DNA of 64,000 bases from positions 40,499-104,498 of the forward strand of contig JAYFRF010000004.1 in NCBI GenBank assembly GCA_034926225.1, written 5' to 3'. Position 1 is the first letter of the stretch, and each line of letters begins with the position of its first letter. Source of the stretch: Clostridiaceae bacterium. Lineage in GTDB: Bacteria > Bacillota > Clostridia > Oscillospirales > QAMX01. The notes under the pieces are model-generated. The model was given only the letters and a program-made list of their open reading frames with translations, searched no databases and was not told the DNA's origin. The position numbers and the translations under genes are program-made. Shown here piece after piece: positions 40,133 to 57,844 of the stretch.

Positions 40133-41434
40133 TTATACGAGGGTTTCGAGCATCCCGCTTAGAGTATCGAGCGCGCGGATGCAAAGAAGTATTTTCCGGT
40201 CACGGCGTTTGGCGCGGGCGGGAAGCGGCTCGAGGATGCCGAAATTGATGTTCATCGGCTGGAAATCGCCGGTTTCGGGCCCTTCAGAGATATAATGTGC
40301 GAGCGCGCCGACGGCGGTGCATCGGGTAAAGTCGGGCTCAGGCTTTCCGCTCAGGTTATGGGCAAGCGTCAGTCCCGCGACAAGGCCGGAGGCGGCGGAT
40401 TCGATGTACCCTTCGACGCCGGTCATCTGACCGGCAAAACGGATGCGGCGGTCGGTGCGCAGCGCATAAGACGCGTCGAGAAGCGCTGGGGAGTTGAGGA
40501 AGGTGTTGCGGTGCATGACGCCGTAACGGGCAAATTCGGCGTGCGAAAGCCCCGGGATCATCGAGAAGACGCGTTTTTGCTCTGGATGACGCAGATGGGT
40601 CTGGAAGCCGACGAGGTTATAGAGCGTCCCGTCCGCATTATCACGGCGGAGTTGGACGACGGCAAACGGCATCTTCCCCGTATGCGGGTCACAGAGTCCT
40701 ACGGGCTTAAGCGGGCCAAACGCGAGCGTCATCTTCCCGCGATGCGCCATGACCTCGACGGGCATGCAGCCTTCGAAGACCATGGATTCCTCGAAGCCAT
40801 GCACAGGGGCGGCTTCGGCGGCGGACAGTGCTTCCCAGAAGGCGCTGTACTCTTCTTCAGTCATCGGGCAGTTGATATAGTCCGGCGTACCGCGGTGATA
40901 ACGGGCGGCGAGGAAGGCACGGGACATGTCGATACTGTCGAGCGTGACAAGAGGGGCGGACGCGTCGTAGAACTGGAGCGGGGTACCGCAGAGGGAAGAA
41001 ATTGCATCGGCTAGCGCACCGCCGGTCAGAGGACCGGACGCGATGATGCAGCTGCCGTCGGGGATGGCGACACATTCGCGGGATTCGGAGGTGATGTTGC
41101 GGCAGGCACGGATACGCTGGGTGACGAGACGGGTAAAGCCATCCCGATCGACCGCGAGAGCGCCGCCCGCATCGACTTTGGACGCGTCTGCGCAGGAGAG
41201 AATGAGCGAGTCGAGCATGCGCAGCTCCGCCTTTAAGAGCCCGGGACCGGTGCCGAGATTATCGGCGCGCAGGGAGTTGGAACAGACAAGCTCGGCGAAG
41301 GTATCGGCGTGATGGGCAGGGGAGCGGAGGAGAGGTTTTTGCTCGATTAAGCGGACAGGAATGCCGCGTTTGGCGAGCTGCCACGCCGCTTCACATCCGG
41401 CAAGACCCGCGCCGACGACGGTGACCTCGCTCAT
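40133..41434 (-). CDS. trmFO: tRNA (uracil-5)-methyltransferase, FAD/folate-dependent
   Basis: VVGAGLAGCEAAWQL, AELVCSNSL, GGALAVDR, FEGCMPVE, NLVGFQT.L, RYGVMHRNTF, AGQMTGVEGY.ESAASG. Confidence 0.96.
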   Translation of the reverse strand: MSEVTVVGAGLAGCEAAWQLAKRGIPVRLIEQKPLLRSPAHHADTFAELVCSNSLRADNLGTGPGLLKAELRMLDSLILSCADASKVDAGGALAVDRDGFTRLVTQRIRACRNITSESRECVAIPDGSCIIASGPLTGGALADAISSLCGTPLQFYDASAPLVTLDSIDMSRAFLAARYHRGTPDYINCPMTEEEYSAFWEALSAAEAAPVHGFEESMVFEGCMPVEVMAHRGKMTLAFGPLKPVGLCDPHTGKMPFAVVQLRRDNADGTLYNLVGFQTHLRHPEQKRVFSMIPGLSHAEFARYGVMHRNTFLNSPALLDASYALRTDRRIRFAGQMTGVEGYIESAASGLVAGLTLAHNLSGKPEPDFTRCTAVGALAHYISEGPETGDFQPMNINFGILEPLPARAKRRDRKILLCIRALDTLSGMLETLV

Positions 41435-47099: not shown

Positions 47100-48593
47100 T
47101 TAATCCAAGGGCTTCATTGTGGGGAACAGCAGCACGTCGCGGATGGAAGCGGAGTCTGTAAGGATCATGACGAGACGATCGATACCGATGCCGAGACCGC
47201 CTGTAGGGGGCAGACCGTATTCAAGGGCGTTGCAGTAGTCATCGTCCATCATTGTGGCCTCGTCGTCGCCGGCGGCGCGGAGGGCAACCTGACGCTCGAA
47301 GCGCTGGCGCTGATCGATCGGATCGTTTAACTCGGAAAACGCGTTGCCGCCTTCCCAGGCGTTATAGAAGAACTCAAAACGCTCAGTCAGGCGCGGGTCA
47401 GCGGGCTTTCTCTTGGCAAGCGGGGAGACCTCAACGGGGTAGTCGTAGATAAAAGTCGGCTGGATGAGATGCTCCTCGATCTTCTGGTCGAAGGCCGCGT
47501 AGAGCGCCTCGCCCCAGGATGCGTTGCCGCCGACCTCGACGCCGACGGACTTGGCAAGTGCTCTGGCGTCGGCAGCCTCGGTCACGGTGTTGAAATCCGC
47601 GCCGGTGTATTCGCGGACAGCGTCGATCATCGAGAGCCTGCGCCAAGACGGGGTCAGATCGATCTCCACGCCCTGCATGGTGACCTTCATCGTGCCGAGA
47701 ACCTTCTCTGCGACGGTGGAGATGAGGGATTCGGTGATCTCCATCATGCCGTGGTAGTCGGTATAGGCCTGGTAAAGCTCCATAGAGGTAAACTCGGGGT
47801 TATGGCGGGTATCCATACCCTCGTTGCGGAAGAGACGGCCGATCTCGTAGACCTTGTCGAAGCCGCCGACGATGAGCCGCTTAAGGTAAAGCTCCGGCGC
47901 GATGCGCAGGTACATGTCGATGTCGAGGGTGTTGTGGTGAGTGATGAACGGGCGTGCGTTGGCGCCGCCGAGAATGGTGTTCAGGATGGGGGTTTCGACC
48001 TCCAAAAAGCCGCGCGCGTCGAGGAACGCGCGAACCTCACGGATGATGGCGGAGCGCAGCTCGAAGGTACGGCGTACCTCGGGGTTGACGATCAGATCGA
48101 CGTAACGCTGCCGGTAGCGTAGGTCTGTATTGGTCAGGCCGTGGTACTTTTCGGGCAGGGGCTGGAGACTCTTTGCAAGAAGCGTGAGGCGTTCAGCGGC
48201 GACGGAGATTTCACCCATGTGGGTACGGAAGACCTTGCCGACAATACCGACGATATCGCCGATGTCCCACTTTTTAAAGTCCGCATAGGCGTCCTCCCCG
48301 ACATTATCGAGGCGGATATAGAGCTGGATACGACCCTTCGAGTCCTGTAAATCGCAAAAAGAGGCCTTACCCTTGACACGCTTGGACATAATACGGCCGG
48401 CGATGGAGACCTCGCGGCTTTCATATTCTTCATAATGCTCGCGGATATCGGAGGAGAATTCGCGGCGGTCGTACTTGACCTGCCAGAAGGGATCGGCGCC
48501 GCGGGACTGGAGCTCCGCGAGCTTATCGCGGCGGATTTGGAGAATCTCGGAAAGCTCCTCGCGCGGAGTATCTATAATAGGTTCATTACTCAT
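47100..48593 (-). CDS. lysS: Lysine--tRNA ligase (class II)
   Basis: OB-fold [73 protein letters not shown]. Confidence 0.98.
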
Positions 48594-48644: not shown

Positions 48645-49115
48645 TTACTCAATTTCGAGTATTTTAAACTTGAGCTTCCCCTCGGGCGCGTCGACGACGG
48701 CGATTTCGCCGACCTTTTTACCCATCAGCGCACGGCCGAAGGGGGATTCGTCGGAAACGAGGCCCAAGGCAGGGTTTGCTTCCTGGGAGCCGACGAGGGT
48801 GTAGGAATCCTCCTCGTCTTCATCGATGTCGAGCACGCGGACCTTAGACGCGTGGGCGACGGTATCGGTGGAGTCGGATTCTTCGCTGATGAGAACGTAG
48901 TTTTGGAGGATATCCTCGATTTCGGCGATACGGGAGTATAGCTTCCCCTGTTCGTTTTTCGCTTCGTCATATTCGGAGTTCTCCGAGAGGTCGCCAAACG
49001 AGCGGGCTTCCTTGATCAGATCGGCGACTTCTTTTTCGCGGACGGTTTTCAAATATTCAAGCTCGGACTGCATCTGTTCGAGACGGGTAGGCGTCAATTT
49101 AAACTGCTTTTTCAT
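48645..49115 (-). CDS. greA: Transcription elongation factor GreA
   Basis: EARSFGDLSENSEYDEAK, VGSQEA.P..G.VS.ESPFG.AL.G. ATG at 49115 fits the RBS spacing (alternative 49124). Confidence 0.96.
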   Translation of the reverse strand: MKKQFKLTPTRLEQMQSELEYLKTVREKEVADLIKEARSFGDLSENSEYDEAKNEQGKLYSRIAEIEDILQNYVLISEESDSTDTVAHASKVRVLDIDEDEEDSYTLVGSQEANPALGLVSDESPFGRALMGKKVGEIAVVDAPEGKLKFKILEIE

Positions 49116-49155
49116 GGTAAACATCTCCTACATGATTAGATCGTTATAAGATAGT

Positions 49156-49184
49156 ATTATATTGCAGGGGTTTGGATATGTCAA
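49156..49184 (-). promoter_or_regulatory. Perfect-consensus sigma-A promoter of the greA-lysS operon
   Basis: Minus strand TTGACA-17 bp-TATAAT. Confidence 0.85.
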
Positions 49185-49325
49185 GGATAAAAAGTGAGAA
49201 AAAGATTTCTGAATTGTAAACAGGATCGAAAAAACACATACTTGACAAGCGGAATAAAATATGGGAAAATAGCATTGAATCAAGTTTTCTTTGAAAATGG
49301 CAGCGGAGAATGGGAGAAGGCTATC

Positions 49326-49787
49326 GTGGACAGGATTGATTTGGAAATCTTGAAGCTTTTAAAAGAAAACGCACGTACGAGAGCGTCCGCAATCAGCGCG
49401 AAGGTGAATCTATCCGTATCCGCCGTCATCGAACGCATCCGCCGGCTCGAGGATGGGCATACCGTGCGCGCCTTTACCATCGCCGTCGATCAAAAGCAGC
49501 TCGGGCTTGATTTGACCGCGTTGATGGAGGTCAGTCTCGAGCATCCGAAGTATTTTGACGCGTTCTGCGACATGATACAGGGTAACCCTTATATTGTTGA
49601 CTGTTATTATCTGACCGGGGAATTTGATTTTATGCTGAAGATTTACACCGATTCTTCGGACAGTCTCGAGCGCATTCACCGCGATATCAAGAGCATGAAG
49701 GGCGTCCAGTCGACGAAGACGCATTTCGTTTTGAAGACGATCAAAAACGATGTAGCGGTGATCCCGGATACCCTGCCGAAAAAGTGA
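49326..49787 (+). CDS. Lrp/AsnC family transcriptional regulator
   Basis: DRIDLEILKLLKENAR...ISAKVNLS.SAV.ERIRRLE; RAM domain CYYLTGEFDFMLK...T.T..VL. Probable GTG start at 49326. Confidence 0.9.
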   Translation: MDRIDLEILKLLKENARTRASAISAKVNLSVSAVIERIRRLEDGHTVRAFTIAVDQKQLGLDLTALMEVSLEHPKYFDAFCDMIQGNPYIVDCYYLTGEFDFMLKIYTDSSDSLERIHRDIKSMKGVQSTKTHFVLKTIKNDVAVIPDTLPKK

Positions 49788-49877
49788 CGACTAAAAGCCG
49801 TATAAATGACTGTAAACGGAAAATTATGCGGACGACAGCCGTGTAAATGAAAAATATTTGAGCGTTTTGAAAAGATC

Positions 49878-49906
49878 TTGCAAATTTTTTCGAAACGCTT
49901 TATACT
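49878..49906 (+). promoter_or_regulatory. sigma-A promoter of the dat / DUF4392 / pxpBC / DUF1445 / pxpA operon
   Basis: TTGCAA-17 bp-TATACT, leaving a leader of about 100 nt. Confidence 0.65.
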
Positions 49907-50011
49907 TGCCGTAGGAAGGCCGTATGCTTCCCGGACCGGAAGTTTGTGCGGAAGACGGAAGCGTATCGCCGCCGCGGATTTGCTACATATTTATTATAGG
50001 AGTGCGACAAT

Positions 50012-50854
50012 ATGGTTAACATTGGTTACTACAATGGACGCGAGGGACTTATCGAGGAAATGATGATCCCGATGAACGACCGCGCCTGTTACTTTGGAGA
50101 CGGCGTATACGACGCGACCTGCTGCAAGAATAATGTGATCTACCTGCTCGAGGAGCATCTCGACCGATTCTTCAATAGCGCGGGCCTGCTGCGCATCAAC
50201 CTGCCCTTTACGAAGGCCGAGCTTGCTGATATCTTAAACGGCCTTGTCCGCAAGGTCGATGCCGACGAGAAGTTCGTCTACTGGCAGTCTTCCCGCGGGA
50301 TCGGGAAGCGGAACCACCTCTTCCCGGCGGATGCGAAGGCGAGCCTGTATATCACCATTACCCCCGCGCCGCTGCCCGACCTCGCAAAGCCAATCAAGCT
50401 CATCACCATCGAGGATACGCGCTTTCTGCACTGCAATATCAAGACGTTAAACTTGATTCCGTCCGTCATGGCGGCGCAGGCCGCCGACGAAGCGGGCTGC
50501 CAGGAAGCCGTCCTGCATCGCGGCGACCGCGTGACCGAATGCGCGCATTCCAATGTCTCGATCATTAAGAACGGTATGTTCATCACCGCTCCGACCGATC
50601 ACCTCATTCTGCCGGGTATCGCCCGTATGCACCTGATCCGCGCCTGCAAAAATCTCTGTATTCCGGTCGACGAGACGACCTTCACGCTCGACGACCTGCG
50701 GAATGCGGATGAGATCATCGTCTCCAGTTCTTCGAAGTTCGCGTTGTATGCAAACGAACTGGACGGGAAGCCCGCAGGCGGACGCGCGCCCGCGCTCTTA
50801 AAGGCGATTCAGGACGAGGTTATGCGTGAATTCCACGCCTATGTGGGAGCGTAA
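50012..50854 (+). CDS. dat: PLP fold-type IV aminotransferase, D-amino-acid transaminase-like
   Basis: DRA.YFGDGVYD, EHLDRF..SA, RFLHCNIKTLNL (PLP Lys), EAVLHR...VTEC.HSNV, ILPGIAR, ADEIIVSSS; resembles Bacillus Dat more than IlvE or PabC. Confidence 0.8.
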   Translation: MVNIGYYNGREGLIEEMMIPMNDRACYFGDGVYDATCCKNNVIYLLEEHLDRFFNSAGLLRINLPFTKAELADILNGLVRKVDADEKFVYWQSSRGIGKRNHLFPADAKASLYITITPAPLPDLAKPIKLITIEDTRFLHCNIKTLNLIPSVMAAQAADEAGCQEAVLHRGDRVTECAHSNVSIIKNGMFITAPTDHLILPGIARMHLIRACKNLCIPVDETTFTLDDLRNADEIIVSSSSKFALYANELDGKPAGGRAPALLKAIQDEVMREFHAYVGA

Positions 50855-50860
50855 AACACC

Positions 50861-51931
50861 ATGACGCAGAAAGAACTGACAACGCTCAACGTTGGGCAGA
50901 GTCTCGACGACCTGATGAACCTCGATCCGCGCGGCTATGGCGTCTGCAAGATCCTGTATCCGGCGGCGCGGGCTTATGCGGGCGGCCCCGTCTGCATGAG
51001 AGCGGCGCGTCTGATGGATGAATCTATCCGGGAAGGATCGTTTGTGTACATCCTGACGGGATTTGTGTTGCTGCCGCATAAGAAGCCCGAGACCGACGGC
51101 ATCTGCGGCGCTTTACAGATGGCACGCGCAGTGGTGGAAGCGTACGGCGCGGTTCCGGTGCTGGTTGTGCCGACGGATTCTGTGTGTGCGGCGTACGCGA
51201 TGGCGCCGGTTGTGGGACTGCACGCTTATGATACGATTGAAGAAGCGCGGGAGCTGCCGTTTTCTGTCGCGATCGTAACGTTTACGAAGGATAAGGCCGA
51301 AGCTCCCGCACAAGCGGAGCGGATGCTGAAGATGGGATGGCCGTCGATGGCGATTTCAACGGAGGCACCGGGAGCGAACGCAGCCGGGGAGTACCATAAC
51401 GCCGCGGGGCAGAGGATTACCGAGCTGGAAGCAAAGTCCGACATCCTCTGGAACATGCTCCGCGAGCACGGCGTGCCGACGCTCGGTATCGGCGACCTCG
51501 GCAACGAGATCGGCATGGGTACGCTCGGCGATCACATCCGGCGCTTCATTCCGCGTGCGGCGGAGCATGCCTGTGTCTGCGGCTGCGGCGGCGGCCTGAC
51601 GGCGGTTTCGACTGCGGACGCCGTGGTAACCGCAACCGTGTCCGATTGGGGCGTCTACGCAGTTTGCGCGGCGCTCGGATTCCTGCATGGCGATATGAAT
51701 ATTTCGCCGGAGAGCAATATGGTACGGGAGTGCATTACGGCGGCGTCGCGTTCGGGAATGGTCGATATGACCGGACGCCTGACGCCGGGGGTCGATGGCT
51801 TTGACGTGGAGTTTAACACGCTGCTGGCAACGCTGATGCGCCGTACGGCAGAGTATCCGTGCAAGCTTGCGGCTGGCTGCCGGCGCTGGTTTGACGAAAC
51901 GAACGCATTGGGGTATTTTGAAAAGGATTGA
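50861..51931 (+). CDS. DUF4392 / glutamate-cyclase-domain protein
   Basis: ILTGF...ETDG..G, E.PG.N..G.YHN, LGIGDLGNEIGMG, ATVSDWG.Y, VDG. Confidence 0.75.
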   Translation: MTQKELTTLNVGQSLDDLMNLDPRGYGVCKILYPAARAYAGGPVCMRAARLMDESIREGSFVYILTGFVLLPHKKPETDGICGALQMARAVVEAYGAVPVLVVPTDSVCAAYAMAPVVGLHAYDTIEEARELPFSVAIVTFTKDKAEAPAQAERMLKMGWPSMAISTEAPGANAAGEYHNAAGQRITELEAKSDILWNMLREHGVPTLGIGDLGNEIGMGTLGDHIRRFIPRAAEHACVCGCGGGLTAVSTADAVVTATVSDWGVYAVCAALGFLHGDMNISPESNMVRECITAASRSGMVDMTGRLTPGVDGFDVEFNTLLATLMRRTAEYPCKLAAGCRRWFDETNALGYFEKD

Positions 51932-51938
51932 TGTGAAA

Positions 51939-52670
51939 ATGAGCGAAATCCGCTTTTTACCGTGCGGCGACCAGGCGCTGACGGTCGAATTCGGGAACGC
52001 GATCGACGCGGGAATTAATACTCGGGTCTGTGCGCTCGCGCGGTTTCTTGCGGAAGAACGCGTTCCCGGTATCCGCGAAACAGTGCCCACTTTCCGATCC
52101 CTGTTAATCACCTATCATCCCGCGATCTTACCCTATAAAAAGCTCATCCGTACGCTCGAACCGCTGATCGCCCGCGCAAGCGGTACGTCGGCGGGAAAGC
52201 GCCGGGTTATCGAGCTGCCGGTCTGCTACGGCGGACAGTACGGCGAGGATATCTCCGACGTCGCCGCTCATGCGGGAATCTCCATAGACGAGGTGGTACG
52301 CCGCCATTCCGGGACGGAATACCTCATCTATATGCTTGGATTCCTGCCGGGATTCGCCTATCTCGGAGGGCTTGACCCGACGATCGTGACGCCGCGTCTT
52401 GCGAGTCCGCGCACGCGTATCCCGGCGGGTTCCGTCGGCATCGGCGGCGAGCAGACGGGCGTATACCCGCTCGATTCACCCGGCGGCTGGCGCCTGATCG
52501 GCATGACGCCGGTAAAGCCCTACGACCCAAGCCGAAAAGAGCCGATCTTATATCAAGCGGGCGACTATATCCGTTTTGTGCCGATCGATGAGAAAACCTT
52601 CCTCGACATCCACGCGCAGGTGGAAGCCGACATTTATCAGGTACACATTCGGGAAGGGGGAGCCGTATGA
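51939..52670 (+). CDS. pxpB: 5-oxoprolinase subunit B (KipI-like)
   Basis: GDQAL.VEFG, ETVPTFRSLL, IELPVCYGG, DISDVA..AG, YMLGFLPGFAYLG, IPAGSVGIGG.QTGVYP..SPGGW.LIG. Start at ATG 51939. Confidence 0.93.
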   Translation: MSEIRFLPCGDQALTVEFGNAIDAGINTRVCALARFLAEERVPGIRETVPTFRSLLITYHPAILPYKKLIRTLEPLIARASGTSAGKRRVIELPVCYGGQYGEDISDVAAHAGISIDEVVRRHSGTEYLIYMLGFLPGFAYLGGLDPTIVTPRLASPRTRIPAGSVGIGGEQTGVYPLDSPGGWRLIGMTPVKPYDPSRKEPILYQAGDYIRFVPIDEKTFLDIHAQVEADIYQVHIREGGAV

Positions 52671-53602
52671 CTATAGTACAGCCGGGGCCTCTTTCGACGG
52701 TACAGGACTTAGGCCGCGAGGGGTATCAGAGCATGGGATTTTCCGTATCCGGCGCGATGGATACCCGTGCGCTGCGCATTGGTAACCTGATGCTCGGCAA
52801 TCCGGAGGGCGCGGCGGCGATTGAGATGACGATGGCCGGGATGACCGTCGAATTTACGTCGGACGCCGTGATCGCGCTGACCGGCGCGGATATGCGGGCG
52901 GCATTAAACGGAAAACCGATGCCGCGTTATACGGCCGTGTATGTCCGCGGCGGCGATACGCTCAGCAGCGGCGCGGCGGTCAGCGGATGCCGGGGGTATC
53001 TGTGCGTCGCGGGGGGCATCGATGTGCCGGTCGTGATGGGGAGCCGCTCCACGAACTTAAAATGCGGGCTCGGCGGATTCCAAGGACGCAAGCTCGCGGC
53101 GGGGGACTGGGTTCCGTACGCGGCGGCGCTCAAGAACACGGCGGGACGGTGCTATTTGCCGGACGCATATCCCGATACGATCACGCTGCGCGTCGTACGC
53201 GGGCCGCAGGACGATCTGTTCACCGAAAAAGGCGTCGCGGCTTTCTTTGGAGAGACCTATACGGTCACGCCGTCGTCCGACCGTATGGGAACGCGGCTGG
53301 ACGGAACTGCCGTCGAAGCGCGGGAGAAGTCGGATATCATCTCCGACGGCATCGCAGCGGGTTCGGTGCAGATTCCGGCGTCGGGGAAGCCGATCGTGCT
53401 CCTCGCCGACCGGCAGACGACCGGCGGCTATGCGAAAATCGCAACCGTCATTACGGCGGATCTTTATAAATTGGCACAGGCGCGTCCTGGAAACAAGGTT
53501 CGCTTCGAGCAGGTCACTTTGAAGGACGCACAGAAACTATATGCGCGCGCGGAGAAGGAAATTTTGCGTCTCGCGCGGGGGAAAGGATGGAAACACGTAT
53601 GA
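52667..53602 (+). CDS. pxpC: 5-oxoprolinase subunit C (KipA-like)
   Basis: [23 protein letters not shown]....[39 protein letters not shown]. Confidence 0.93.
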
Positions 53603-54384
53603 ATTATGCCAATACAGCCCCTGCCGAAATGCGGCGGATGTTCCGGGAAGGGAAACTTGTCTGTCCGACCTCCGGTATGTGCGCGGGATACGCGCAGGCG
53701 AATCTTGTCGTACTCCCCAAGGAGGATGCGTTCGATTTTCTGCTTTATACGCAGCGTAACCCCAAGCCCTGCCCGGTGCTGGAGGTGACCGACGCCGGCG
53801 CGCGGACGCTGTCGATCATCGCACCCGGCGCCGACATCGCGACGGATATTCCGAAGTACCGCGTCTATGAGAATGGCATCCTCACGGGCGAGTATACCGA
53901 TGTGTCCCGCTTCTGGAGACCCGACTTCGTCAGCTTCCTGATCGGGTGCAGCTTCTCGTTTGAAGCGGCGCTCCTTGAGGCCGGCGTCCCGGTGCGGCAT
54001 ATTGAGGAAGGCCGCAACGTGCCGATGTACAACACCAATATCCCCTGCCTGCCGGCGGGCAAGTTCCACGGGAACATGGTGGTATCGATGCGCCCGCTGC
54101 CGCCGGAGAAGGTCGTGCGCGCGGTGACGGTCACCGCGTCGATGCCGCGCGTCCACGGCGCGCCGGTGCATATCGGCGACCCCTCCGTGATCGGCATCGC
54201 GGATATCGCGAAACCCGACTACGGTGACGCGGTGACGATTCATCCGGGCGAGGTACCGGTATTCTGGCCCTGCGGCGTCACGCCGCAGAATGCGGTCATG
54301 GCGTCAAAGCCCGCTTTTGTCATCACACACGCGCCGGGGCATATGTTCATCAGCGACGTGAAAAATGTGGAGCTAAAGGACTGA
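53599..54384 (+). CDS. DUF1445 putative hydro-lyase / D-glutamate-cyclase family protein (YcsI-like)
   Basis: [94 protein letters not shown]-coupled start (alternative 53587). Confidence 0.9.
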
Positions 54385-54385
54385 T

Positions 54386-55156
54386 ATGATGAAAAAAGTC
54401 GATCTAAACTGCGATTTAGGGGAAAGCTTCGGCGCATATACCATCGGACTCGACGAACGGGTCATTCCGCATATTTCATCGGCGAACGTCGCCTGCGGCT
54501 ACCATGGGGGCGATCCGATGGTCATGCGCAGGACCATCGCGCTTGCCAAAAAAAGCAATGTCGCCGTCGGTGCGCATCCGGGTTTCCCCGATCTCATGGG
54601 GTTTGGACGCCGCAATATGACGGTGACGCCTGACGAAGCGTACGGGTATATGCTCTACCAGCTCGGCGCGCTTGCTGCGTTTGCCAAAGCCGCAGGGGTA
54701 CGCTTGCAGCATGTCAAGCCGCATGGCGCATTGTATAACATGGCGGGCAAAGACGCAGATCTTGCCGCAGCGATTGCGCAGTCGATTGCCGATTTTGACC
54801 CGACCCTGATTCTGTTGGGGCTATCCGGCAGCGCCATGCTTGCCGAAGGGGAAAAACGGGGCTTACGCTGTGCAAAAGAGGTCTTTGCCGACCGCGCGTA
54901 TAACGAAGACGGCTCCCTTGTCAACCGAAAGCTGCCTGGTTCCATGATCACGGACGAGGAAGTAGCCATCGCCCGCGTGCTGCGGATGCTTGAGCGAGGC
55001 GAAGTCGAGACGATAACGGGAAAGGTCATCCCGATCGAGGCCGATTCCGTCTGCGTACATGGTGACAACGAACACGCACTGGAGTTTGTGACGAAAATCC
55101 GCGCGGCAATTGAGGCACGCGGCATTGCCGTGGCACCGATGGGCGAGAATCTCTAA
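54386..55156 (+). CDS. pxpA: 5-oxoprolinase subunit A (LamB/YcsF)
   Basis: DLNCDLGESFG, SANVACG.HGGDP, GAHPGFPD..GFGRR, HVKPHGALYN, EVFADRAY, DSVCVHGD. Confidence 0.95.
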   Translation: MMKKVDLNCDLGESFGAYTIGLDERVIPHISSANVACGYHGGDPMVMRRTIALAKKSNVAVGAHPGFPDLMGFGRRNMTVTPDEAYGYMLYQLGALAAFAKAAGVRLQHVKPHGALYNMAGKDADLAAAIAQSIADFDPTLILLGLSGSAMLAEGEKRGLRCAKEVFADRAYNEDGSLVNRKLPGSMITDEEVAIARVLRMLERGEVETITGKVIPIEADSVCVHGDNEHALEFVTKIRAAIEARGIAVAPMGENL

Positions 55157-55167
55157 ATGAGGCTTGG

Positions 55168-55202
55168 AAAAAGCACCCCATTGTATGATGGGGCGCTTTT
55201 TT
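55168..55202. terminator. Bidirectional terminator between pxpA and the MATE gene
   Basis: AAAAAGCACCCCAT...ATGGGGCGCTTTTTT. Confidence 0.7.
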
Positions 55203-55226
55203 ACCGTTTTTTTATGGGAGTTGCGG

Positions 55227-56609
55227 TCACGCGGCCTGATCTGAGGCCGTATTGGTAATGTGATGCACGACATTGACCTTCCAGCGCCCTGTAAAGTAGA
55301 AAACGATAATCAGAATCAGCGCGCCGAGCGACGCGACAGGCCCGCCGAGGCCGACGCCGAATAGACCCCAGTCGAGGACAACGCCGAACAGATAGGATGC
55401 CGGGATGCGGAACAGCAGGGAGGAGAGGATACCGTTTATGAGAGTAAAGGTCGTATGCCCGGAACCCATGTACAAGCCGTTGAAGCAGAAGCAGATCGGG
55501 ACGAGCAGGTAATCGAAGGAGAAGGAACGCATGTAGGAAACGCCGTAGGCGATCATCTCAGGGTCGCGGTCGAAGAGACGGAGGATAAACTCGGGGAAGG
55601 CTTGCGCGACGGCGAAGATAGAGTAGCTGATGACGACGGCGATGACGGTGCCGATGCGCAAGGACTTGACGGCACGGTCCCATTTGCCTGCGCCGATATT
55701 CTGCGCAGACATCGTGGAGATGGCGGCACTCATCGCGAGAGCGGGCATGAGCGCAAAACCGTTGAATTTGCCGACGACGCCGACAGCGGCGCTTGCCGTA
55801 TAGCCGCCGATGACATTGACAAGTGTGGTGATGAACATGAAGGAAATGCTGACTACGCCGTTTTGAATGGCGTTCGGAGTGCCGATTTTGAAGATCAGGC
55901 CAAGCTGTTCCTTATAGATGCGGTAGGAACGGAGCTTAAAGTCGAAGATGAACTTGTTGCGGGCGAGATAGGCGACACACAGGAGCATGGATAAGCCCTG
56001 AGAGATGACGGTTGCAATCGCCGCGCCGCGCGCGCCCATATGCATCGGACCGACAAAAACAATGTCAAGGATGATATTCGTAACGCAGGCGATGAGGACG
56101 AAATAGAAGGGGCGTTTGCTGTCTCCCATACCGCGCAGAATAGCGGAGAGGGCGTTGTAGCCGAAGATAAAGACAATGCCGAGGATGGTGACGAAAAGAT
56201 ATTCGGACGCTTCGGCAAAGCTTTCTTCCGGTGTGCGGATTAGGCGCAGCGACGCGTCACGGAAAAAAAGCATCCCAACGGTGCAAAATATGGAGAGAAT
56301 CAACAGTCCGGTGACCAGTGTAGAGATTGTACGGCGCATTTTTTCGCGTTCTCCCGCGCCCAGATACTGCGCTATCAAAACGGTTCCGCCGAGACATAGA
56401 CCAAAGACGATGTTTGTAATAATAAAAGTGACCTGTCCGCCGATGTTGACGGCAGACATACTGGCGGTACCGGCGAAATTGCCGACGATGAGCATGTCCG
56501 CAACGCTATATAGCGATTGGATAATGTTCGAAAGAAGAACGGGGAGAGCAAAGACAATGAGCCTGCGTGCGACGCTGCCTTCGGATAGGTTGTTCTCAAA
56601 TTGACTCAT
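55227..56609 (-). CDS. MATE family efflux transporter
   Basis: ALP.LLSNIIQSLYSVADM.IVG, ILRGMGDSKRP, NIILD..FV..M.MG..GAAIATV, twelve TM segments. Start at ATG 56609. Confidence 0.92.
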   Translation of the reverse strand: MSQFENNLSEGSVARRLIVFALPVLLSNIIQSLYSVADMLIVGNFAGTASMSAVNIGGQVTFIITNIVFGLCLGGTVLIAQYLGAGEREKMRRTISTLVTGLLILSIFCTVGMLFFRDASLRLIRTPEESFAEASEYLFVTILGIVFIFGYNALSAILRGMGDSKRPFYFVLIACVTNIILDIVFVGPMHMGARGAAIATVISQGLSMLLCVAYLARNKFIFDFKLRSYRIYKEQLGLIFKIGTPNAIQNGVVSISFMFITTLVNVIGGYTASAAVGVVGKFNGFALMPALAMSAAISTMSAQNIGAGKWDRAVKSLRIGTVIAVVISYSIFAVAQAFPEFILRLFDRDPEMIAYGVSYMRSFSFDYLLVPICFCFNGLYMGSGHTTFTLINGILSSLLFRIPASYLFGVVLDWGLFGVGLGGPVASLGALILIIVFYFTGRWKVNVVHHITNTASDQAA

Positions 56610-56718
56610 AGTACATCCTTTCTGCAAAATATGACCGTACAAAACGAAACACATAATAACACAGTTCAATTTATATGTCAATGGTGAATATCACGGTTCC
56701 AAAAGGGAAAACAAACGG

Positions 56719-56747
56719 CGCAAAAATAACTCTCACTGCATACGATA
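56719..56747 (+). promoter_or_regulatory. Candidate mother-cell sporulation (sigma-K/sigma-E-type) promoter
   Basis: CGCA-16 bp-CATACGATA fits HDCA-N16-CATANNNDD. The motif is short, so a chance match is possible. Confidence 0.3.
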
Positions 56748-56779
56748 GGGTAGACCTTGCAAGGAGGGTTGGAAAAAGG

Positions 56780-57844
56780 ATGAAAAGCACTGTATTCTTT
56801 ATGGGGGCGAATGCGCCGAGCGGTTTTGTGGGGCTGTATGACGAATTGCAGGGACCGCATATGCGCAGACTTTATATCCTTAAGGGCGGTCCCGGGAATG
56901 GGAAATCCACATATCTGCGTACCATTGCCGATGCCGCCGAGGAACGGGGCTTATACGTCGAGCGTATCTCCTGCGCGTCAGATCCCGGCTCGCTCGACGG
57001 TGTATACCTGCCTGAACGCGGCATAGCGTGGATTGACGGCACAAGCCCCCATGTCGCGGAGCCGAAGCTGCCGGGTGCGCGGGATGTGTATGTCAACCTC
57101 GGCGAACTATGGAACATAGACGCGCTGGAGCCTGAGACAGGAACGCTTACGCGGCTGTTTGAGTCGTATGCGAAAGCGCAGGCGGCAGCGGTTCGTTATA
57201 TCCGCGCGGCGGGCGCGGTATATGATGTGATCTGCGCGCTGCCGGAAGGCGTACGTTTCGACAAGCTTGAACGGCGTACGAAGGGGATCGCTGCGCGGGA
57301 ATTGCGCAAAAAGGGGAAAACTTATGGTAAAGGACGGGAAATCCGACGCTTTTTGTCAGGGATAACGCCGATCGGGCAGATCTGTCGTTACGACAGCGCA
57401 TTTGCGTTATGCGAGCGTATTTACGAGCTGACGGATGCGTTTGGGATCGGAAGCGCGATGCTGGAAACGCTGCGGGAAGCGGCGCTGCGCAGCGGATACG
57501 ATATCATCACCAGCGGACATCCGCTGGCGCCGGAGAAGCTGACGCATCTGCTGATCCCGGGGGCAGGGGTGGGCTTTGTGACCTCGGACGCGGTTTATAC
57601 CTGCGACACGGAACCTTATCGGCGGCTGCGGCTGGAGACCCTGGTGAGCGGGGATACCCGCAAAGCGCGGCAAGCGTATAAGGAGAACCGGAAGCTGCTG
57701 CGGAGCCTGCTGGAAGCGGCAAATCAGGCGCAGCGGTGCGCGAAGACGATTCATGACCGAATTGAAGAGCGATATAACCCTACCGTAGATTTTGAAAAAC
57801 TGCGTGCGATGGCTCGCGATATGGTGCAAAGGACTCTGGATTGA
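56780..57844 (+). CDS. PRK06851-like P-loop NTPase of unknown function
   Basis: FFMGAN.P.GF..LY, Walker A ILKGGPGNGKST, CASDP.SLDG, IDGT.PH, RR.FLSGITP.G. Start at ATG 56780. Confidence 0.75.
   Translation: MKSTVFFMGANAPSGFVGLYDELQGPHMRRLYILKGGPGNGKSTYLRTIADAAEERGLYVERISCASDPGSLDGVYLPERGIAWIDGTSPHVAEPKLPGARDVYVNLGELWNIDALEPETGTLTRLFESYAKAQAAAVRYIRAAGAVYDVICALPEGVRFDKLERRTKGIAARELRKKGKTYGKGREIRRFLSGITPIGQICRYDSAFALCERIYELTDAFGIGSAMLETLREAALRSGYDIITSGHPLAPEKLTHLLIPGAGVGFVTSDAVYTCDTEPYRRLRLETLVSGDTRKARQAYKENRKLLRSLLEAANQAQRCAKTIHDRIEERYNPTVDFEKLRAMARDMVQRTLD

Follow-up and report, generated by a model that had tools for sequence, protein, structure and literature searches.

The locus described here raises the question of what is done by an operon that encodes together a D-amino-acid transaminase, homologues of both domains of the D-glutamate cyclase of animals and an ATP-dependent 5-oxoprolinase, in a genus in which no glutamate racemase was found. 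It lies in contig JAYFRF010000004.1 of a Clostridiaceae bacterium, an anaerobe of the gut type (assembly GCA_034926225.1; GTDB lineage Bacillota, Clostridia, Oscillospirales, QAMX01), within a stretch of 64,000 nucleotides (positions 40,499 to 104,498 of the forward strand) that was analysed as a whole and is called the window; coordinates given without a prefix are positions in it. We class the module as a 5-oxoprolinase operon that has been extended to a D-glutamate module, and the answer that we tentatively prefer is that it manages the node between D-glutamate and 5-oxoproline, without the need for a stereo-inversion. A first-pass annotation of the same DNA had suggested a route carrying D-amino-acid nitrogen to L-glutamate via 5-oxoproline, and several of its claims are taken up below.

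The order on the + strand is lrp, a promoter, dat-DUF4392-pxpB-pxpC-DUF1445-pxpA and a terminator, with seven genes (open reading frames) within 49326-55203. The genes were assigned by Pfam and NCBIfam profile searches of the window proteins:

49326-49787, + strand: Lrp/AsnC-family regulator, 153 amino acids, GTG start (PF13404 HTH_AsnC and PF01037 ligand-binding domain)
50012-50854, + strand: dat, class-IV aminotransferase of fold type IV, 280 amino acids (PF01063, E 6e-42)
50861-51931, + strand: DUF4392 / PF14336 protein, 356 amino acids (PF14336, E 5e-78)
51939-52670, + strand: pxpB, 243 amino acids (PF02682; TIGR00370, 216 bits against a cut-off of 145.55), its ATG 7 nucleotides past the DUF4392 stop
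52667-53602, + strand: pxpC, 311 amino acids (PF02626; TIGR00724, 321.7 bits against a cut-off of 230.2), in ATGA overlap with pxpB
53599-54384, + strand: DUF1445 / PF07286 protein, YcsI-type 'putative hydro-lyase', 261 amino acids (PF07286, E 2e-72; NF003969, 426 bits against a cut-off of 324)
54386-55156, + strand: pxpA, 256 amino acids (PF03746; NF003814, 380.7 bits against a cut-off of 226)

The spacings from dat to pxpA are 6, 7, -4 (ATGA), -4 (ATGA) and 1 nucleotides, the second overlap joining pxpC and the DUF1445 gene (which has an alternative ATG start at 53587), and a purine-rich ribosome-binding site stands 5' of each internal start. Taken jointly with the preferred reading as a whole, and held as tentatively, the six genes from dat to pxpA would form a single transcription unit. 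What the first-pass annotation had proposed on the identities of the genes, their tight coupling, the promoter and terminator and a link to D-glutamate and 5-oxoproline was borne out in full.

Judged by its active-site residues, Dat is a canonical D-amino-acid transaminase. The top NCBIfam model was TIGR01121 with 222.9 bits, compared to 93 for ilvE and 77 for pabC, a score under the equivalog cut-off of that model (277.45 bits); and the nearest PDB entries were 1DAA and 3DAA, the D-amino-acid transaminase of Bacillus YM-1 (E 3e-50). Y31, R98, H100, K145 and E177 of 1DAA are identical in Dat (Y33, R100, H102, the K of 'NIKTLN' and the E of 'VTECAHSN'), which means that the pyridoxal phosphate lysine K145, the glutamate E177 and the alpha-carboxylate trap Y31/R98/H100 (YM-1 numbering) are conserved. 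The two enzymes therefore have in common the fold type IV, the catalytic lysine and glutamate and the tyrosine-arginine-histidine trap; the present one differs in sitting in a cyclase/oxoprolinase operon and in being the sole candidate D-glutamate source of a genome without MurI. An aminotransferase specific for L-branched-chain substrates, named in the first-pass annotation as a finding that would speak against its proposal, is unlikely from these residues and from the scores of TIGR01121 against ilvE. A genome search returned the operon dat as the sole gene of this type, and the second class-IV aminotransferase gene of the genome is probably ilvE.

All three subunit families of 5-oxoprolinase (EC 3.5.2.9) are encoded in the operon, each above its family-level cut-off, and by these profiles PxpA, PxpB and PxpC are members of the prokaryotic ATP-dependent 5-oxoprolinase families (the PxpC equivalog NF045499 gave 276.4 bits, below its cut-off of 500). 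The same three families are found in the pxp operons of Bacillus subtilis, Escherichia coli (ybgJKL) and Corynebacterium glutamicum (pxpTABC, PMC13274462), operons that contain neither dat nor a DUF4392 gene. In B. subtilis the operon is pxpA/ycsF-ycsG-ycsI-kipI-kipA, with YcsI (DUF1445) adjoining the pxp genes, and in our control search this genome had DUF1445 with the pxp genes and no DUF4392 (PMC10448178). The first-pass annotation was wrong about the 'transporter' among the B. subtilis genes, YcsG, which is a Mn2+ importer and not a substrate transporter (PMC10448178). The controls E. coli, Thermus and Deinococcus carry PxpA without DUF1445 or DUF4392, and so DUF1445 as an obligatory Pxp subunit was ruled out. 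A D-specialised Pxp paralogue standing beside a housekeeping copy was likewise ruled out, pxpA being single-copy in this genome and in 47 of 51 cluster genomes.

By homology, the DUF4392 and DUF1445 proteins each correspond, as separate polypeptides, to one domain of the D-glutamate cyclase of animals: DUF4392 is a homologue of the C-terminal domain and DUF1445 of the N-terminal domain of the mammalian mitochondrial DGLUCY (C14orf159, 9030617O03Rik; EC 4.2.1.48), in which PF07286 and PF14336 are fused. The mouse and human proteins are fusions of this kind, and the recombinant enzyme converts D-glutamate to 5-oxo-D-proline, with no L-glutamate formed and no racemase activity (PMC5339696). Within the DUF4392 half, the motifs of the metal site are kept in the bacterial protein. 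The differences are in the arrangement: mammals have one polypeptide, whereas here the DUF4392 gene comes first and the DUF1445 gene 1.7 kb further on, pxpB and pxpC filling the interval, and the operon also encodes a D-amino-acid transaminase and an ATP-dependent 5-oxoprolinase.

The only PDB relative of DUF4392, by sequence and by fold (template modelling score, TM, 0.86-0.88; AlphaFold model with a predicted local distance difference test, pLDDT, of 91), is TON_0340 (PDB 4FC5, 5GL4) from Thermococcus onnurineus, which binds two Mn2+, has a RecJ-like fold and shows weak phosphatase activity, with no known physiological substrate (PMC5132392). The acidic residues E77, D79, E168, D212, E216 and D312 of DUF4392 are invariant (alignment A1) and stand in motifs that align with the di-metal site of TON_0340, the pairing with its six published ligands being drawn from motifs and not from coordinates. 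TON_0340, the only solved structure of this fold, shares these acidic metal-binding motifs but has 268 amino acids against 356 here, lacks the N-terminal helices and a cysteine-rich loop, and comes from archaea, which are without DUF1445. This clade-specific CxCxCGGG loop (DUF4392 residues 238-245) is invariant in a 12-sequence alignment and present in 70 of 80 cluster-linked proteins; a divergent homologue that stands alone is also without it. The loop may bind an additional metal or supply catalytic thiols.

DUF1445 has the PDB relatives 3DB9 (E 8e-101) and 2PIF (E 2e-96), with 54-56% identity in Foldseek alignments, and its invariant residues are C117, C225, H186, H244 and H248. A fold search with its model (pLDDT 90) returned no racemase or hydrolase, and beyond its own family just the NrpR-like 3NEK (TM 0.39-0.45). 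Assigning a catalytic class from fold searches was therefore abandoned, since DUF1445 resembles its own family and weakly 3NEK, DUF4392 resembles TON_0340, and no known hydrolase or racemase is indicated by either. Adjacent DUF1445 and DUF4392 genes, standing alone and in the order of the mammalian fusion, were observed in a Verrucomicrobiota-type genome of the Victivallis phylum (G249; L095:8886-10688), with no Pxp, Dat or alanine racemase gene nearby; the DUF4392 of this pair has 27% identity to the window's and is the homologue without the cysteine-rich loop. The occurrence of the pair without Pxp or Dat fits one two-part enzyme.

In the reading that we prefer, DUF4392, with its putative di-metal site of the Mn2+ type, would together with DUF1445 convert D-glutamate to 5-oxo-D-proline and back; PxpABC would open 5-oxo-L-proline to L-glutamate with ATP spent; and Dat would reversibly convert D-glutamate and pyruvate to 2-oxoglutarate and D-alanine. 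The D-amino group would be returned to the L-pool by alanine racemase, whose gene lies outside the operon in this genome and within the cluster in many relatives. D-glutamate and both enantiomers of 5-oxoproline could in this way enter central metabolism as L-glutamate, 2-oxoglutarate and alanine; in the relatives with an ATP-binding cassette (ABC) importer, the latter would probably serve uptake and salvage; in the genus without MurI the same Dat, run from D-alanine, would supply D-glutamate to the wall; and the operon probably determines, in addition, how large the D-glutamate pool is, under an amino-acid-sensing regulator of the Lrp type. A cyclase and an ATP-dependent hydrolase acting on the same enantiomer would form a futile cycle, so the two should work on different enantiomers, or an inversion should lie between them.

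The gene set is strongly conserved. Among 80 related loci from species-representative genomes (at least 46% identity to DUF4392; probed with the window proteins), dat lies immediately upstream of the DUF4392 gene in 74 of the 79 with room for it, and pxpB, pxpC, DUF1445 and pxpA were all found in 62 of 66 with room; three further look-ups of DUF4392 relatives gave the same neighbours. Conservation of the operon, for which the first-pass annotation had asked a check, is thus far stronger than that annotation could know, the set recurring in nearly all 80 loci. Two gene orders occur, that of the window and dat-DUF4392-DUF1445-pxpA-alr-pxpB-pxpC, the latter at times followed by genes for a biotin carboxyl carrier protein (BCCP) and a biotin carboxylase, and the adjacent pairs dat-DUF4392 and DUF1445-pxpA are kept in both. 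Of the 80 loci, 22 include a gene for a true alanine racemase (TIGR00492, 399 bits) in the cluster, and a LivJ-type (amino-acid-type) ABC importer lies directly upstream in 31. The operon of the window contains no transporter gene, as had been claimed, and the adjoining MATE gene is on the opposite strand, yet the importer stands beside the module in these 31 relatives. Among 61 relatives in 40 genera, DUF4392, DUF1445 and PxpA share exactly the same 7 genomes (Fisher p 2e-9 by genome, 1e-5 by genus), and PxpABC without the DUF pair was found in 0 of 54 genomes of this bacterial order.

The carriers are mainly Clostridia, together with Victivallis and Paenibacillaceae metagenome-assembled genomes. 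In the Victivallis phylum DUF4392 was detected in just 2 of 201 genomes, and the Victivallis module genes are more similar to those of the window (71% identity for Dat) than most clostridial genes are, which indicates that the module, including its regulator, moved horizontally.

Some accessory genes were seen around the cluster. A P-loop gene resembling cytidylate kinase (PF13189) stands between the importer genes and dat in every one of the 31 importer loci, for example at L004:6475-7137. A creatininase-family gene (cyclic amidohydrolase; 1 of the 80 loci) lies between the DUF4392 gene and pxpB in the nearest relatives (L001:9134-10063, in a species 71% identical; and L010), and a 53%-identical copy is encoded elsewhere in the genome of the window (C10:292121-293032); it may be a further lactam-opening activity tied to the module. 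In the order of the Clostridium type, the genes immediately past pxpB-pxpC encode BCCP and a biotin carboxylase of the AccC type (TIGR00514, 750 bits), as in Clostridium saccharobutylicum (L006:12172-15779) and in 5 other loci (L022, L025, L034, L043, L052, L086 types). By its components this is the parts list of a split urea-carboxylase-like enzyme, which raises the question of whether some PxpBC proteins work with biotin.

D-glutamate is a universal building block of the cell wall and an abundant D-amino acid of the gut. Neither the genome of the window (2.83 Mb, 96.7% complete) nor three congeners gave a match to PF01177 (aspartate/glutamate racemase, MurI), and two MurI proteins from the same bacterial family, used as tblastn queries, found nothing in this genome; all four sampled genomes of the genus carry the module. 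In this genome MurD, the ligase that adds D-glutamate, and two alanine-racemase homologues are present. With no MurI, one Dat, and both MurD and alanine racemase encoded, the sole source of wall D-glutamate that can be seen is Dat supplied by alanine racemase, a route of which bacilli and staphylococci offer examples. The first-pass annotation, which proposed a route for scavenging or detoxifying D-amino acids, missed this absence of MurI: in a genus that, as sampled, is without MurI, Dat is probably biosynthetic for wall D-glutamate, and not a scavenger alone.

Among 50 other cluster-bearing genomes, 14 had no PF01177 match, including two Victivallis metagenome-assembled genomes of 5.4 and 6.2 Mb, and 36 had one, which in 3 of those 36 was only an aspartate-racemase-like full-length match. 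All but one of the 14 carriers without MurI have a Dat orthologue (at least 50% identity), even where dat is not adjacent to the module, and the five loci that have the DUF and Pxp genes without an adjacent dat are all in genomes without MurI.

The management of the D-glutamate/5-oxoproline node is preferred because it requires no new chemistry, covers the clustered alanine racemase and the importers, matches the product of the mammalian enzyme and lets Dat double as a source of D-glutamate. Several points weigh against it. The association between the module and the loss of MurI is not significant by genus (p 0.17), and six relatives of the same order (G008, G036, G046, G049, G050, G052) have no PF01177 match, no Dat homologue (E<=1e-10) and no DUF4392 module, which means that a missing PF01177 alone is no proof of dependence on Dat and that another source, or an undetected divergent racemase, exists. 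The equilibrium of the cyclase favours the lactam, so an un-driven opening of 5-oxo-D-proline would be inefficient, and a cell with Dat as its only supply of D-glutamate would lose it to the cyclase. That none of the 54 relatives has PxpABC alone agrees better with one linear pathway, or with a complex, than with independent L- and D-branches, and the strict co-inheritance of these branches without an obvious reason is a weakness of the reading.

That linkage, with the two conserved gene pairs, is better explained by an ATP-driven, irreversible D-to-L inversion, a rival that we consider unlikely. Dat would form D-glutamate, one DUF protein would cyclise it, the other would epimerise the lactam, and PxpABC would release L-glutamate; the metal-binding DUF4392 would probably be the cyclase and DUF1445 the epimerase. 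Each gene would then have a distinct step, in accordance with the perfect co-occurrence of DUF4392, DUF1445 and PxpA and with the pairs dat-DUF4392 and DUF1445-pxpA; the two invariant cysteines of DUF1445 and the CxCxC loop of DUF4392 are compatible with thiol acid/base chemistry; and strict anaerobes cannot use O2- or quinone-linked oxidation of D-amino acids, which also counts for this route. It would explain why B. subtilis has DUF1445 with its pxp genes and no DUF4392 (PMC10448178). A conceptual parallel exists in the DgcN/DgcA pathway of marine bacteria (N-acetyl-D-glutamate; cited in PMC12363236), a costly 'irreversible racemisation' of D-glutamate via an N-acyl intermediate in which the amino group is acylated, the centre inverted and L-glutamate released at a cost. 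The proteins are unrelated, and the acylation would here be intramolecular, as a lactam; no acetyltransferase or N-acyl-amino-acid racemase domain was found among the operon proteins with Pfam and NCBIfam. Against the inversion stand the mammalian two-domain enzyme, whose 5-oxo-D-proline is excreted with no L-glutamate formed, which argues against either DUF domain as an epimerase (PMC5339696); the fact that a 5-oxoproline racemase is not known; the fold of DUF1445, unlike that of any racemase; the D-to-L route that Dat and alanine racemase already provide without ATP; and the clustered alanine racemase, which is hard to place in such a pathway. The first-pass annotation had held that the stereochemical gap (D-lactam made, L-lactam hydrolysed) implies either an epimerising DUF protein or a PxpABC that accepts the D-form. 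The gap forces no inversion, because Dat with alanine racemase, clustered in the 22 loci and present in this genome, is an ATP-free exit for D-glutamate. Of its two branches, the epimerase keeps a low probability, and a D-accepting PxpABC that yields L-glutamate is chemically wrong: hydrolysis of the lactam keeps the configuration at C-alpha, so D-glutamate would be the product and would cycle futilely through the cyclase, and the way from D to L would require a 5-oxoproline epimerase. It is rather doubtful that DUF4392, DUF1445 and PxpABC constitute an undescribed, racemase-independent, ATP-driven inversion of glutamate by which the D and L pools of lineages without MurI, such as this genus, could be linked in either direction.

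The strict co-inheritance of the five genes would equally fit a multi-subunit ATP-dependent lactamase made of the DUF pair and PxpABC, or a system for another substrate, such as a lactam derived from D-2-aminoadipate; the creatininase-family insert in the nearest relatives, the BCCP and biotin carboxylase added past pxpBC in Clostridium variants and the weak phosphatase activity of TON_0340, whose real substrate is unknown (PMC5132392), point in the same direction. We regard it as quite improbable, since PxpABC works without either DUF protein in E. coli, Thermus and Deinococcus, the DUF pair stands alone in another phylum and is an active cyclase in mammals, and the residues of Dat fit an ordinary D-alanine/D-glutamate enzyme. 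The cluster as a general replacement of MurI was rejected, given the 36 of 50 carriers with a PF01177 match, the genus-level p of 0.17 and the cases without MurI that Dat explains, and it is kept as a rival of very low probability. In its biosynthetic form L-glutamate or 5-oxo-L-proline would be converted through the lactam to wall D-glutamate, with ATP pulling the opening and Dat passing the D-amino group to D-alanine. The absence of MurI throughout the genus as sampled, beside a MurD, the 14 of 50 carriers without PF01177 and the five dat-separated loci speak for it; nearly all such carriers have Dat elsewhere, though, Dat with alanine racemase suffices, and both an epimerase and a D-specific ATP-dependent prolinase would be required. 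Least probable of all, by a little, is a detoxification like that of mammals, in which D-amino groups would be collected in D-glutamate, cyclised exergonically to 5-oxo-D-proline and exported, PxpABC only repairing the L-lactam. It has the mammalian precedent (PMC5339696), a cyclisation free of ATP and a MATE exporter gene adjoining the operon in the window; but the MATE gene is convergent and found near the cluster in just 2 of the 80 relatives, the usual accessory is an importer (the 31 loci above) and not an exporter, and a drain on D-glutamate would be harmful in a cell without MurI.

No description of the combination of dat, DUF4392, pxp and DUF1445 genes in bacteria was found in the literature searched; a preprint table lists, with no analysis, 6 split homologues of human GLUCM from gut bacteria (PMC11580864), and no cyclase is entered in a catalogue of D-amino-acid genes from 2025. 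The enzyme families are all known; what is new is their combination and a genus without glutamate racemase. DUF1445 and DUF4392 (half of the human mitochondrial enzyme) have no known bacterial role, and the module, which is compact and conserved, places both between Dat and an ATP-driven lactam opener and so yields concrete reactions that can be tested with four or five purified proteins. In the carriers without MurI the operon transaminase should be essential for wall synthesis, and would be a target. If the lactam is epimerised, the module would represent a new amino-acid inversion, a new 5-oxoproline epimerase activity and a function for two widespread DUF families; if it is not, it would be the first bacterial pathway for 5-oxo-D-proline, a compound that animals make from bacterial D-glutamate. 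The pathway is undescribed and widespread in either case, and a real surprise only in the former.

The transcription signals and the gene that follows the operon are:

49242..49270, + strand: promoter-like TTGACA-17-GAAAAT with a TG extension, upstream of lrp (consensus scan alone, 10/12 matches)
49878-49906, + strand: candidate operon promoter TTGCAA-17-TATACT, sigma-70-like (consensus scan)
55176-55203, + strand: hairpin and T-run like an intrinsic terminator; the stem has 7 bp with 4 GC pairs, CGCTTTTTTA comes after it, and pxpA and the convergent MATE gene lie on either side
55227-56681, - strand: MATE gene, convergent with the operon and outside the unit

In the spacer of 224 nucleotides between lrp and dat, TTGCAA-17-TATACT is the sole block conserved with three related species (L008, L009, L010), the flanks having diverged, and we take it as the candidate promoter of the operon. 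A riboswitch or leader RNA between lrp and dat was considered and dropped: an Rfam scan of 49100-55400 by E-value gave only noise, with no element in the dat leader of approximately 105 nucleotides, and this leader is unconserved among relatives. The Lrp/AsnC regulator scored under every NCBIfam equivalog cut-off (for instance 70.6 against 233 for the Lrp model), and an orthologue (51-94% identity) lies upstream of dat in 19 of the 80 related loci, Victivallis among them.

Past the MATE gene, 56675-57844 on the + strand encodes a 389-amino-acid P-loop protein of the PRK06851 family (NF005320, 174 bits, below cut-off), with no link to the operon seen. On the other side, a perfect sigma-70 consensus TTGACA-17-TATAAT (12/12; 49156-49184, - strand) faces the divergent genes 48645-49124 and 47100-48593, whose syntenic counterparts in L001 carry GreA/GreB and class-II tRNA-synthetase domains.

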